NCBI RefSeq assembly: GCF_056746865.1
Contig: NZ_JBWKMP010000003.1
Direction: 5' to 3' (one strand)
DNA: 64,000 nt
From: a plasmid
Under the pieces are notes generated by a model. It saw only the letters and a list, made by a program, of their open reading frames with translations. It ran no database searches and was not told the origin of the DNA. Positions within the stretch are counted from its first letter, which is position 1. Each line of letters starts with the position of its first letter. The translations under genes were made by a program, and so were the position numbers. Positions 39,414-53,997 of this stretch are shown here, piece after piece.

Positions 39414-39665
39414 TTATTTTTTTGGTGCATCCTCGTTCTGATACACCGGATCGCTCCCTTTTGGCAACTGGAGGCTTAACTGCCGATAGTGCCGTAACCG
39501 TTCCATGAAATAGGTGCGCAGATTCTCTGGTTGCTCGCGGGCTACCTGTTCAGCTATGACAGGTATGTTCAATCGCTCTTTGTACGCCACACCGCTGGCA
39601 GCCAGATCAACGTTAACCTTATCCCGTTCTTCCTGACTTTTAGCTGCAATATTCCAGTCGCTCAT
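39414..39665 (-). CDS. hot: Hot-like homolog of DNA polymerase III theta subunit
   Basis: [43 protein letters not shown] aligns with E. coli HolE. Confidence 0.8.
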
Positions 39666-39979: not shown

Positions 39980-40615
39980 TCAGATATCGGCCTTATTCGG
40001 AATTTTATCAGCCACCAGCGGCAATAAAGCCTTCGCCATTTCATGAACCAACATGGCATCAATGACGCCTAGCGTATGGCCCGGTTTAATGTTTAATGCC
40101 GCCTCAAGATGACTCCTTTCCAGGCCGCTTTTCTCGGCTTGTTTATGACGATCTGGTGTAATAACTTCGCCCAAAACGCGGCTAATTTTTTCTCGTAATT
40201 GCTGGGTGCCAGCACACTTGATCGCTGTATCGTGGAGACGGTTAACCAGTTCGCGATAAACATGCGGCTTAATGCGGATACGTTCACCGGTGACGCCCTT
40301 TCCTGGCGCTGGCACCGAACTATCCGGATAGTTGCCAGCCTCGTAAGCTACCCGCAGCCAGTGCATGAATGTTTCAGTGGACACACAACCACAGTCCACA
40401 TCGATTTTTCCGCGTTGCTGTTCCAGCCACTGCTCAAAATTCAATCTACACGTATTACTTTCATGTTGCTCTTTTTGTCTCAAGGCCAGCATCTGCTGGG
40501 CTATTTCCAATACTTCATCTGCCGTATATCCAGCACCGTGACCATACATTTCGATACGGGAAATAATCTCTGATATACGCTCTTCAGTGATTCTGGTCAT
40601 TTCTTTTTGCGCCAT
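39980..40615 (-). CDS. Hypothetical protein sharing a ~45-aa segment with the C-terminus of the DUF4406 fusion
   Basis: KPHVYRELVNRLHDTAIKCAGTQQLREKISRVL versus APHIYRELVNALRDIAAVYHGTEQLRERLAHTI in 52539-53150. Confidence 0.5.
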   Translation of the reverse strand: MAQKEMTRITEERISEIISRIEMYGHGAGYTADEVLEIAQQMLALRQKEQHESNTCRLNFEQWLEQQRGKIDVDCGCVSTETFMHWLRVAYEAGNYPDSSVPAPGKGVTGERIRIKPHVYRELVNRLHDTAIKCAGTQQLREKISRVLGEVITPDRHKQAEKSGLERSHLEAALNIKPGHTLGVIDAMLVHEMAKALLPLVADKIPNKADI

Positions 40616-50854: not shown

Positions 50855-51529
50855 TCACTCTCCTTTGATGCGAATGCCAGCGGCACGGGAGTCATTCCAT
50901 CGCTTTACTTCTTCACGAATTACGTCAATGCATTCTTTCGAATCCATTAGGTAATCTTCATCAAAAAGCCTTTCCTGTTCGTTTTCTATCGCAACAATGA
51001 TTGCTTCAACTAACTTTTGTGCCTGAGAACCACTTTCTAACTCTGCAATGCGCTTCTCTGCGGCTTCCAGCTTCTCGCGCATATCGTCAACGTACTCGAC
51101 CAGAGATCCGCCAGCAGGAATTTCGCACTCCTCGACCAGTTGGAAGTAGATATCAGCTGCGGCCCGTGTGTTGCTATGCCTAGCGTCGCCCATCTCACCT
51201 TCACGAAGAGCATCGCGTTCGGCGGTAAGATTGGCTATTTTGCTGTCTTTGCCTTCAAGCTCAACGCGCAGCTTCCCTACCGTTAGCGCAATATCCTCGT
51301 TCTCCTGGTCGCGGCGTTTTATGTATTGCTGGTTTCTTTCCCGTTCATCCAGCAGCGCCAGCACAATGTGTGGCGTTATCAAGGACTCAAATTCGGCAAC
51401 AGCTTGCTCACCTCGCTTGTAATTCTTAATCCCACCTAAATCTTTCGCGTTCTGTGCCGCCTCACGCAGCGCCAGTGTGTCGATGTCGATGTCGATGTTG
51501 CTCATTGTGCCTCCTCGATTTCGTCCCAT
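50855..51529 (-). CDS. ead/Ea22-like family protein
   Basis: Same conserved block as 43941-44693. Confidence 0.55.
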
Positions 51530-51735
51530 TCCACCCAGGCATTCTCTCCATCAGCATCGATTTCACCTTTGTGACCGCATTTGGAACAAACGGCCTCATC
51601 ACCCGCCCACAAAGAATCTTTGGTTACCGACCATCCTGTTACCCTGGCTTTGCCGTGCTGGCACCTAGGGCAATCATCAAGCCATTCGACTTCGACCGTT
51701 GAAGGACCAAATCCATGTTCAGTTCGGATGCTCAT
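51502..51735 (-). CDS. Small zinc-ribbon protein
   Basis: CPRCQHG ... CSKCGHKG. Confidence 0.4.
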   Translation of the reverse strand: MSIRTEHGFGPSTVEVEWLDDCPRCQHGKARVTGWSVTKDSLWAGDEAVCSKCGHKGEIDADGENAWVEWDEIEEAQ

Positions 51736-52235
51736 GACTGAACTCCTTTGCGAATCTGTTCCGCCCATTCTTCAAGGGATTTCTCCGCATATTCACCGGA
51801 CAGGCCATCAATCGGATGCGGTTCATTAGCCAACTCTTCTTTCGCTGACAAAATCATGCGTGTAACGTCGAAAACTTCACGCAAAGACTTATTGATAAAT
51901 CCGTGATTGAACGCAGCAGCAAGACGGCTTGCGGTGTAGTTAATCCCCTCGTTGCGTGCCTCCGCACGTATTTCAGCCAGGAAAGCGTCGGTGGCTGACA
52001 TATTTCCTGTTGCCTTCATGGCCTTCAAAATAACCAGAACGCCATCTTGCCCAACCAACTCGGAGATAATCTCAGTGTTGTCGCCAACAACCTCACAGAA
52101 TGCCTGAACAGCTTTACGAGCAAGTGCATTCTCCGCCGCCAGCGCCGCGCGCTCTTTCTCAAGTCGGGAAATTTCCGTTACATACTCAGCGTTACGCTCT
52201 GCCAGTTGTGCGGGCGTTAAACCTTCAGACTTCAT
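51732..52235 (-). CDS. ead/Ea22-like family protein ([12 protein letters not shown] block)
   Basis: Paralog of 44690 and 49817. Confidence 0.5.
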   Translation of the reverse strand: MKSEGLTPAQLAERNAEYVTEISRLEKERAALAAENALARKAVQAFCEVVGDNTEIISELVGQDGVLVILKAMKATGNMSATDAFLAEIRAEARNEGINYTASRLAAAFNHGFINKSLREVFDVTRMILSAKEELANEPHPIDGLSGEYAEKSLEEWAEQIRKGVQS

Positions 52236-52542
52236 GCACTCTCCTTTCGAAATAAACGTACTGATTAATCATGCCCAGGGGCATTTCGAACTTTTCTGCG
52301 ATCTCACGGCGGGGAACGCCACACTGATGAAGCTGCCGCGCCAGCTCTATATCGCTCTGCCGGTATTTGGCTGACTGGTGAAAGTCACCTTTCAGAATCA
52401 TGCTGATCCGCAATTGCCGCGCTTTAGTCCTGACAGCACCACCGGTACGCCCGATCAGTCTCCCAATACCCTCGACTGTCATAGTCCCGGCGCACTGGCG
52501 GAGTATCATGATTTCTGCCCTTCCCCATCCCCGCCAGCTCAC
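52225..52542 (-). CDS. Small HTH protein (sigma-70 region-4-like)
   Basis: C-terminal HTH-like RREIAEKFEMPLGMINQYV. Confidence 0.4.
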   Translation of the reverse strand: MSWRGWGRAEIMILRQCAGTMTVEGIGRLIGRTGGAVRTKARQLRISMILKGDFHQSAKYRQSDIELARQLHQCGVPRREIAEKFEMPLGMINQYVYFERRVHEV

Positions 52543-53150
52543 GCAGAACTCCTTCTAACCAAAAGAACGCCATCTTCAGAAACAACGTTGCAGGACTTCA
52601 GGTAATTCATTGCCTCTTTCGGTAATGGATTCTTTGGATCGGCGCTTGCCAGGGATTTCGATAACCTCATGATAAATTTGATCATTACCTTCTGACGGAG
52701 CTTGTGCTCATGGGATGCAGACAGGTAATAGGAAATGGTATGGGCTAAACGCTCACGAAGCTGTTCTGTGCCGTGATATACAGCAGCGATATCACGCAGT
52801 GCATTGACCAGTTCCCGGTAAATATGCGGAGCAACCTGGCATTCAATGTTGGTTGGTGACTCATAAATTACATTCAGCCCCAGCTTTTGAGCCAGCTCGT
52901 GCTCTGCACGAGCGCCAACTGATTCCTCCCACCCCTTGAGCAAATAGACCGCATTAGCCGAACGCACCATTGCAAGGCAAATATCCATGTATTCGCTCTG
53001 GCAGAGGCCAGCAGGTAACAGCGCCGGATTCAGAACAATATGCCCTACCTCCATCAGCTCTTTTGCTTTCGAAAAAAACGCTGTGCGGTTGTAGTCGGGA
53101 TAACCAGTCATCGGACCCGCGATGTAAATTTTCATAATGCGTTTTGACAT
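52539..53150 (-). CDS. DUF4406 (nucleoside 2-deoxyribosyltransferase-like) domain fused to a C-terminal domain shared with 39980-40615
   Basis: MKIYIAGPMTGYPDYN ... LLKGWEESVGARAEHELAQKLGLNV fits DUF4406; C-terminal APHIYRELVNALRD segment is paralogous to 39980-40615. Confidence 0.5.
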   Translation of the reverse strand: MSKRIMKIYIAGPMTGYPDYNRTAFFSKAKELMEVGHIVLNPALLPAGLCQSEYMDICLAMVRSANAVYLLKGWEESVGARAEHELAQKLGLNVIYESPTNIECQVAPHIYRELVNALRDIAAVYHGTEQLRERLAHTISYYLSASHEHKLRQKVMIKFIMRLSKSLASADPKNPLPKEAMNYLKSCNVVSEDGVLLVRRSSA

Positions 53151-53345
53151 CAAAGTTTCCCCAGGAACGTTACGCAAAAGTTAATGAGAGCAAAGAGTTC
53201 AATGCCCAGCTCAAACAACGCCAGGACAGTGAAAAACAGGGCATATAGCAACCCAATTTCTGTACCGGATTGCTGGTGGATTGCACTTATTGCGACAAGC
53301 ATCATGACCTCCTGATATAGCGTCTGAAAAAAGTATCTTCATTTT

Positions 53346-53377
53346 GTGTTAGAAAATCAATTTTGATTTTCTAACAC
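53346..53377. promoter_or_regulatory. Perfect operator palindrome GTGTTAGAAAATCAA-tt-TTGATTTTCTAACAC
   Basis: 15-bp arms are exact reverse complements; sits between the divergent minus-strand operon and the ref-like gene. Confidence 0.6.
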
Positions 53378-53421
53378 TTTTGATCAACCATAGCGGCGAT
53401 GTAGACAAACCGGGTATTTCT

Positions 53422-53997
53422 ATGAAGCAAAGCTATTGGGAGAAACAGACACAAAAAGCCCTGCAAAAACTGGCTGATCCGAAATGGCGGGAGGAACAAA
53501 GGGCAAAGCGTCTTCAGCAAGCTCAACGCCAGCAGCAGCGTGCGCGAGAAAAAGCCGCATCGCCTGAATATCGGCAAAAGAAAATTGAAAAAGCGAAGCA
53601 ATATGAACAGCGAAGAAAAGAGAAGGCCGCTTCTGCTCCTGTCAAAAAAACTCGCGCGTCACGCGGCCTGAAAGGCAGAACACTCACAGCAGATGAGCGC
53701 CGGATACAAACTGCCATCGGTGCTCTCCCCTGCATTGCCTGCCATATGCACGGACAGCATAGCCCTGTGGTATCCCTGCACCACATCTTCGGGAGAACAG
53801 CAGAAAACGCGCATAAATACGTCCTCCCTTTGTGTAAATGGCACCATCAACACGCAGCGCCAGCAGAGATCCGCGAGCAATACCCCTGGTTGGTTCCTGT
53901 TCATGCTGATGGAAAAATAGGCGGCAAAGCAGATTTCAGGCGGCACAATGCTGATGAAATGACGTTGTATCAGATGGTGACTGAATTAATAAATTAA
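53422..53997 (+). CDS. Ref-like HNH-type nuclease with a basic disordered N-terminal region
   Basis: Lys/Arg/Glu/Gln-rich N-terminal ~80 aa followed by Cys/His cluster CIACHMHG ... HHIFG ... CKWHH; same architecture as P1 Ref as I recall it; start could be TTG at 53380. Confidence 0.45.
   Translation: MKQSYWEKQTQKALQKLADPKWREEQRAKRLQQAQRQQQRAREKAASPEYRQKKIEKAKQYEQRRKEKAASAPVKKTRASRGLKGRTLTADERRIQTAIGALPCIACHMHGQHSPVVSLHHIFGRTAENAHKYVLPLCKWHHQHAAPAEIREQYPWLVPVHADGKIGGKADFRRHNADEMTLYQMVTELIN

Follow-up and report, generated by a model that had tools for sequence, protein, structure and literature searches.

By its sequence, the window (the whole stretch of DNA analysed here, 64,000 nucleotides) is an E. 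coli phage-plasmid of the D6-like type, related to P1. Positions 52126-53700 share 87.8% DNA identity with Escherichia phage D6, and homologues of phd/doc, humD and hot are sited at 38.2-39.7 kb of the window. Two of its genes, named ORF A and ORF B, are described in this work. ORF A (52539-53150) comes second in a long accessory operon that runs leftward and is made up of small, translationally coupled genes. In an annotated relative, the operon block spans about 14 kb and reaches hot and humD; ORF B (39980-40615), located approximately 12 kb downstream, therefore has the same transcriptional orientation as ORF A. An Ead/Ea22-like gene separate from both ORFs is found at 50855-51529. The features of ORF A and of the gene preceding it are listed below.

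53150..53305, minus strand: operon gene 1, encoding a strongly hydrophobic 51-aa protein (phrog_8890), with a strong AGGAGG Shine-Dalgarno site
52539..53150, minus strand: ORF A CDS, 203 aa, a DUF4406-hairpin-tail protein, orthologue of phage D6 gp038
52863..53135, minus strand: DUF4406 domain (aa 6-96), from Pfam, AF2, Foldseek and the family profile
52842..52862, minus strand: flexible linker (aa 97-103), with AF2 pLDDT <50 at residues 100-105
52713..52841, minus strand: portable 'EaA-type' cassette, a predicted two-helix hairpin (aa 104-146, PHIYRELVNALRDIAAVYHGTEQLRERLAHTISYYL), common to ORF B
52542..52712, minus strand: lineage-specific C-terminal tail (aa 147-203), predicted to be helical at low confidence

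The ORF listing calls ORF A as 52539-53177 on the minus strand, with a TTG start. The ATG at 53150 overlaps the stop codon of the upstream 51-aa ORF (TGATG), and both RefSeq and the phage D6 annotation give ORF A a length of 203 aa. The overlap and these annotations identify 52539-53150 as the correct CDS, in agreement with the limits given in the preliminary description, and the longer TTG start at 53177 was dropped. The phrog_8890 gene is translationally coupled to the DUF4406 gene, and the stop codon of ORF A overlaps the GTG start of the next gene (GTGA). A gene for a Ref-like RecA-filament endonuclease (53380-53997, plus strand) diverges from the ORF A operon; the annotation of its relatives implies an ATG start at approximately 53419 rather than the TTG at 53380.

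The orthologue of ORF A in phage D6, gp038 (YP_009914766, 'DUF4406 domain-containing protein'), is 87% identical in amino acids, and the protein on plasmid NZ_LR890273 is 100% identical; the RefSeq record is WP_021551799, found on plasmids of approximately 90 kb. The D6 gp038/WP_021551799 protein has the three-part architecture of ORF A and its position beside ref, with no material difference, and its public annotation is limited to the DUF4406 part, leaving the cassette unmentioned. Genes 92-100% identical to ORF A are carried by 91 non-mobilizable plasmids of around 90 kb from Escherichia and Salmonella. More generally, the fusion of DUF4406 to the cassette is limited to one family of 69-100% identity on plasmids of around 90 kb in E. 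coli, Salmonella and Shigella. No relative of the C-terminal tail was found outside D6 in the phage collection searched, and the tail occurs in D6-like elements only.

The divergent intergenic region between ref and the ORF A operon is centred on a perfect palindrome, whose half-sites belong to a family of 13-mers dispersed over the window.

53348..53375, no strand: perfect palindrome of 13+2+13 bp, GTTAGAAAATCAA-AA-TTGATTTTCTAAC
11287, 12494, 23452, 24697, 24712, 24847, 28397, 32839, 34235, 48272, 53994 and 57395: the 12 further sites of the 13-mer

With at most 2 mismatches, the 13-mer GTTAGAAAAT(T/C)AA occurs 14 times in the window against 2.07 expected, and 0 of 100 shuffles reached 14. 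Two inverted pairs are formed, at 24697/24712 and, in the intergenic region next to ref, at 53348/53363. The core of the 13-mer resembles the P1 C1 operator (ATTGCTCTAA vs AATTTTCTAA). These sites are probably the operator set of the immunity repressor, with the palindrome at 53348-53375 as a candidate operator; if so, the ORF A operon would be repressor-controlled.

The N-terminal part of ORF A was assigned to DUF4406 in the preliminary description, and this assignment is borne out by a full-length match to Pfam PF14359 (E 1.6e-34, score 118.6, model positions 1-91 of 91), which covers residues 15-105 of the 212-aa translation from the TTG start. The motifs IYIAGPMTG and GWEESVGARAE are both found in ORF A, and phrog_355, annotated as 'nucleoside 2-deoxyribosyltransferase', matches it with an E value of 3.2e-44. 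Among 19 aligned DUF4406 sequences, the invariant residues are Y9, A11-G12-P13-M14, G16, N21, F25, P42, P46, L71, S77, G79, A80 and E83, of which Tyr9 lies within IYIAGP and Glu83 within SxGAxxE. The profile of these 19 sequences matches the Trypanosoma brucei nucleoside 2-deoxyribosyltransferase 2a0k (E 5.5e-4). In the profile alignment, KIYIAGP falls on KIYIAGP, with Y9 on the corresponding Tyr, and E83 falls on the Glu of GTAFEV; furthermore, E83 aligns with the Glu of SPGTHVEIG in MilB, residue 103, which is mutated in PDB entry 4ohb. The AF2 model of ORF A has a pLDDT of about 90 over residues 7-96, and its top Foldseek matches are 2a0k (E 6.6e-4), 6qai, MilB, DNPH1 and BcmB, all with probability 1.0.

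Judged from these alignments and the model, the domain is a minimal alpha/beta fold of the NDT/DNPH1/MilB type that keeps Tyr9 and the putative catalytic Glu83. It shares with the superfamily of NDT, DNPH1 (Rcl) and the MilB-BcmB N-glycosidases the fold (TM-score ~0.5 on the target) and the motifs (I/V)Y(I/F)AGP and SxG(A/T)xxE, with its Glu aligned to the nucleophile. However, DUF4406 is only around 95 aa long against 130-160 aa in the solved members, and the sequence similarity is marginal (E 5.5e-4 at best). The missing length includes the C-terminal elements that complete the active site of the partner subunit in NDT and DNPH1, so that catalysis is not guaranteed. Its most likely activity would be to cleave a (deoxy)nucleoside 5'-monophosphate at the N-glycosidic bond.

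DUF4406 is found in 628 phage records, and most DUF4406 proteins are stand-alone, with 95-130 aa. Other family members have unrelated tails: a Cys-rich CPSCGG...C tail, zinc-ribbon-like as judged by eye, an Ead_Ea22 domain (P0223) or PF18909 (P0250). In phage N15 (8234-9542), the DUF4406 gene gp57 is directly followed by a cytosine DNA methyltransferase of the Dcm type; other loci have Dam or N6/N4 methyltransferases nearby, and on one contig the gene lies between MazG and dGTP_diPhyd_N genes, beside ribonucleotide reductase and ThyX. In these example loci, the neighbours suggest a connection of DUF4406 to nucleotide or DNA metabolism. NCBIfam gave no match for ORF A or ORF B, and no family of the PADLOC defence models matched either protein at E<=0.1. 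A literature search on DUF4406, the cassette motif strings, EaA and PmgU returned no functional study of DUF4406 or of the cassette.

ORF B is a homologue of PmgU of phage P1 ('putative morphogenetic function') and lies in the same pmgT-hot-humD region.

39980..40615, minus strand: ORF B CDS, 211 aa, P1 PmgU homologue
40154..40279, minus strand: the other hairpin cassette in the window (PmgU aa 113-154)

In tblastn, over approximately 80% of its length, ORF B is 76.5% identical to P1 pmgU and 88-91% identical to its counterparts in P7 and RCS47, and it matches phrog_21459 with an E value of 5.8e-70. The position near hot and humD reported earlier for this gene is correct: a homologue of the theta subunit (39414-39665) lies immediately downstream, and an S24 peptidase is seen in the annotated relative. 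The protein is a chain of portable modules, in which an N-terminal block is followed by a FEQWL..CGC block, then the hairpin and finally the PmgU tail. No experiment was found behind the label 'morphogenetic'. CRISPRi and transposon data show that P1 pmgU is non-essential and dispensable for plaque formation (PMC10695390).

A block in the C-terminal half of ORF A had been described as recurring in ORF B. The block is real, at a level well above chance, and it is smaller than that half, with only about 42-55 residues in common. BLASTP between the two proteins gave one significant segment (21/55 identical, E 1e-9). Each protein matches the PHROG family of the other, ORF A phrog_21459 (E 5.8e-8) and ORF B phrog_5781 (E 1e-5), in both cases solely across the shared block. 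Alignment of the two family profiles with hhalign supported the block with a probability of 96.4% and an E value of 1.1e-9 over 42 columns (A 104-145 vs B 113-154), and nothing in common was detected between the two families beyond those 42 columns. This cassette is thus all that ORF A shares with P1 PmgU. The two copies in the window have about 47% nucleotide identity over the core, and 11 of their 16 identical residues use different codons; the same holds for 17 of the 29 identical residues between KpV2811 and Edno5. Identical residues that are mostly encoded by different codons indicate that it is the peptide that is under selection. A recent duplication within the window was ruled out by the low nucleotide identity of the window copies and their scrambled synonymous sites.

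The block was present in 181 phage records when used as a tblastn query. It is N-terminal in EaA-2 of Salmonella phage L and C-terminal in the EaA-like protein of Klebsiella KpV2811 and in gp97 of Escherichia phage Cyrano, and further carriers are Serratia phage BZS1, Edwardsiella phage Edno5, T4-like RB49 (ORF005c) and T5-like Proteus phage PM135. Collectively, the carriers comprise P22-like EaA proteins and P1-, T4-, T5- and T7-like phages, both temperate and virulent, and their hosts are essentially Enterobacterales plus a few Vibrio. At 1495-1635 of Klebsiella phage VLC2, a T7-like Drulisvirus, a 46-aa ORF consists of the cassette alone and extends from the end of the primase gene into the beginning of the helicase gene. 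Among P22/L-type EaA proteins, EaA-2 of phage L, the KpV2811 EaA-like protein and the Drulisvirus 'Eaa' ORF carry the cassette of ORFs A and B. In contrast to this EaA type, ORFs A and B hold a divergent 'type 2' form, PPHxYRELVNxLRDTA..., and not KDHQIRELVNELRDIAVEYHGTQQLRERIAR. Unlike the lambda/Stx Ea22 mosaic proteins, they also lack DUF551 and the Ead_Ea22 coiled coil (PF13935), for which neither ORF gave a match.

An alignment of ten sequences yielded the consensus KPHxxRELVNxLRDIAIxYHGTQQLRERIAR. The profile built from it was scored against 1.84 billion representative proteins, an exhaustive search used in place of the word-indexed homologue search, which, with the C-terminal 103 aa of ORF A as query, had returned nothing but near-identical fragments. 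The cassette was retrieved in 2,236 clusters at E<=1e-3, including 814 at E<=1e-10, with proteins of 55-392 aa. Among the best 150 of the 2,236, 86 proteins hold the cassette internally, 40 at the C-terminus and 18 at the N-terminus, and 6 are stand-alone (<=80 aa); stand-alone proteins have 46-77 aa, and some proteins carry tandem cassettes, as in P0010 and P0011. As for partners, about 110 of the same best 150 have no Pfam domain, 29 carry DUF551 and 2-3 carry Ead_Ea22. Enzyme domains acting on nucleotides or nucleic acids were found in 6 of these 150 (dATP/dGTP pyrophosphohydrolase in 2, ASCH/DUF3850 in 2, DUF4406 in 1 and an Rv2179c-like exoribonuclease in 1), so that a loose link of the cassette to nucleic-acid metabolism is conceivable. 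No entry for the cassette was found in Pfam, NCBIfam, PADLOC or the PDB, and ten long cassette proteins were likewise without an NCBIfam match.

The AF2 model of ORF A predicts a two-helix hairpin with helices at residues 108-125 and 130-145 (pLDDT about 80), flanked on either side by linkers with pLDDT <50. For an unrelated carrier (P0010), two successive hairpins followed by a DUF551 beta domain were predicted, with similar pLDDT for hairpin and linkers. The alignment for the ORF A model was assembled by joining DUF4406 domains to unrelated cassette fragments in artificial concatenated rows, after MAFFT had placed isolated cassette fragments on the DUF4406 domain in an alignment that was discarded; inter-domain contacts in this model are thus not interpretable, and pTM values of 0.49 and 0.37 leave the relative arrangement of the domains undefined. 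Within helix 1, alignment positions 9, 12/13, 16, 19/20 and 23 form a hydrophobic stripe, and the opposite face bears the near-invariant polar residues H7, R10, E11, N14, R17 and D18. A PDB profile search with the cassette gave chance-level matches only, with nothing below E 0.8, and Foldseek with the cassette-containing P0010 model gave nothing below E 0.39. No Pfam helix-turn-helix (HTH) matched ORF A or ORF B, and no DNA-binding fold was retrieved by the PDB profile search or Foldseek. A conserved, exposed polar face together with the existence of stand-alone forms points to a binding surface, and to docking or oligomerisation rather than a passive spacer. From the alignment and the models, we infer that the cassette may be an autonomous docking or oligomerisation unit.

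The cassette also comes and goes within a single protein family. PmgU proteins that are 92% identical across their aligned positions may carry it or lack it (P0347 and P0362), and a further cassette-less form of 161 aa (P0352) is present on 93 contigs. The module order can be permuted: the hairpin precedes the FEQWL..CGC block in P0050 and follows it in PmgU. In another PmgU relative (P0318), the cassette region is read in another frame, suggesting a compensated frameshift. Another portable block, LNFEQWLEQQRGKIDVDCGCVSTETFMHWLRVAYEAG, was observed at 40330-40445 (aa 58-96 of ORF B), in an order relative to the hairpin opposite to that in P0050; many Stx, lambdoid and Klebsiella phages have it at 62-80% identity in their Ea22, EaA and DUF551 proteins. 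Natural in-frame fusions in public assemblies were found to involve the two downstream neighbours of ORF A, ORFs of 105 and 167 aa (51732-52542 in the window). One joins DUF4406 and the cassette to the C-terminus of the 105-aa ORF (P0209), and the other joins DUF4406 to the C-terminus of the 167-aa ORF (P0215). These fusions indicate that illegitimate recombination is ongoing in the ORF A operon, with deletions creating chimeric genes. The literature describes Ea22/EaA proteins as block-wise mosaics, chains of portable blocks including DUF551 (PMC10834534), and places the pmgT-humD region among eight hypervariable regions in P1-like phage-plasmids (PMC9603915). The domain shuffling proposed earlier is thus confirmed by the varied contexts of the cassette across 2,236 clusters and by its presence or absence within the PmgU family.

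Taking these results together, we consider it reasonably probable that ORF A is a three-part protein of the D6 lineage, an NDT-like enzyme followed by a portable hairpin and a tail, that shares no modification pathway with PmgU. Part 1 (aa 6-96), the DUF4406 domain, would act through Glu83 as the nucleophile in the N-glycosidic cleavage of a (deoxy)nucleoside 5'-monophosphate. Part 2 (aa 104-146), behind a disordered linker, is a predicted autonomous hairpin that circulates among early and accessory proteins of enterobacterial phages. The hydrophobic face of its helix 1 is predicted to pack on helix 2, leaving the polar face (H, R-E, N, R-D) exposed, and the cassette may tether the cargo fused to it (in ORF A, the DUF4406 enzyme) either to itself or to a single conserved partner. 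The tail that forms part 3 (aa 147-203) is specific to the lineage. The fusion was presumably a single event in the D6 lineage, produced by illegitimate recombination of the kind typical of the hypervariable region.

Several other readings of the shared block were weighed against this one. The preliminary description took the block as a mark of nucleotide- or DNA-modification function, which would place the DUF4406 protein and PmgU in one pathway. The NDT-like nature of DUF4406, the frequent position of its genes beside DNA methyltransferase or MazG-type/dGTP-diphosphohydrolase genes, and the few cassette proteins that hold nucleotide enzymes are all in line with such a pathway. However, the majority of cassette proteins have either DUF551 or no recognised domain, PmgU shows no domain resembling an enzyme and also occurs in cassette-less forms, the fusion of DUF4406 and cassette is a single lineage-specific event, and the two genes are about 12 kb apart. 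A common pathway is therefore very improbable on our assessment, and the functional claim made for the block is not supported, given that most of its partners are not nucleotide enzymes and that it also occurs alone. With such partners, a 46-aa stand-alone form and PmgU proteins both with and without the block, the prediction of a nucleotide-related role comes down to the DUF4406 domain by itself. The block might also be functionless, a conserved DNA 'linker' kept for promoting homologous recombination between mosaic genes, as its place between flexible linkers at the module junctions of highly mosaic proteins and the character of the region as a recombination hot spot would suggest. Against this, the copies have only 40-71% DNA identity with conserved amino acids, most identical residues are in different codons, and stand-alone ORFs exist; the codon comparison largely rules out a recombination linker, to which we assign next to no probability.

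The remaining alternatives accept a function for the peptide and differ in what the hairpin does. It may be a host-takeover or anti-defence peptide that binds and inhibits one conserved enterobacterial protein, autonomous in function and with the fused domains being secondary. Stand-alone forms of 46-77 aa, one of them located between primase and helicase in a T7-like Drulisvirus, would fit such a role, as would the presence of the cassette in virulent T4-, T5- and T7-like phages besides temperate ones, the strong conservation of the exposed polar face and the host range of essentially Enterobacterales with few Vibrio. We nevertheless regard an inhibitor as unlikely: PADLOC gave no match and the motif was not found in the literature, P1 pmgU is dispensable for plaque formation, and cassette-less PmgU variants are common. 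A small HTH-like element that brings its cargos to DNA or RNA could be read from the two predicted helices joined by a G-T turn, from several conserved Arg residues and from partners that act on nucleotides or RNA (dATP/dGTP pyrophosphohydrolase, ASCH, exoribonuclease). The net charge, however, is near neutral with R-E and R-D paired, two helices are fewer than in any canonical HTH, and neither a DNA-binding fold (PDB profile search, Foldseek) nor a Pfam HTH was retrieved, so we strongly doubt that the hairpin binds nucleic acids in this way. Finally, a bolder version of docking would make the cassette a universal docking peptide of enterobacterial phages, an address label for one host or phage structure such as the replisome or the nucleoid, which we hold to be rather unlikely. 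If it were true, cargos as diverse as the NDT-like N-glycosidase, dATP/dGTP pyrophosphohydrolase, ASCH, the exoribonuclease and DUF551 would be delivered to one site, and the DUF4406 fusion would be a locally targeted enzyme that sanitises or depletes nucleotides.

In conclusion, the ORF A gene itself is ordinary: it is an already annotated accessory gene in a hypervariable region, present as a lineage-specific variant, and mosaicism of this kind is documented. The block that it shares with the PmgU homologue is explained by ordinary shuffling of modules and not by a DNA-modification pathway, so that of the original interpretation the domain assignment and the shuffling stand and the function read from the shared block is not supported. 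Phages commonly encode the NDT-like DUF4406 domain, which recurs beside DNA methyltransferase and MazG-type genes. The most useful by-product of the analysis is the cassette, compact and strongly conserved over approximately 40 aa, which occurs in more than 2,000 protein clusters and is covered by neither Pfam, NCBIfam nor solved structures. Its definition would allow many proteins now labelled 'hypothetical', 'EaA' or 'Pmg' to be better annotated, and if the cassette is indeed a docking unit, it would provide one handle on a large share of the dark matter of phage early regions.
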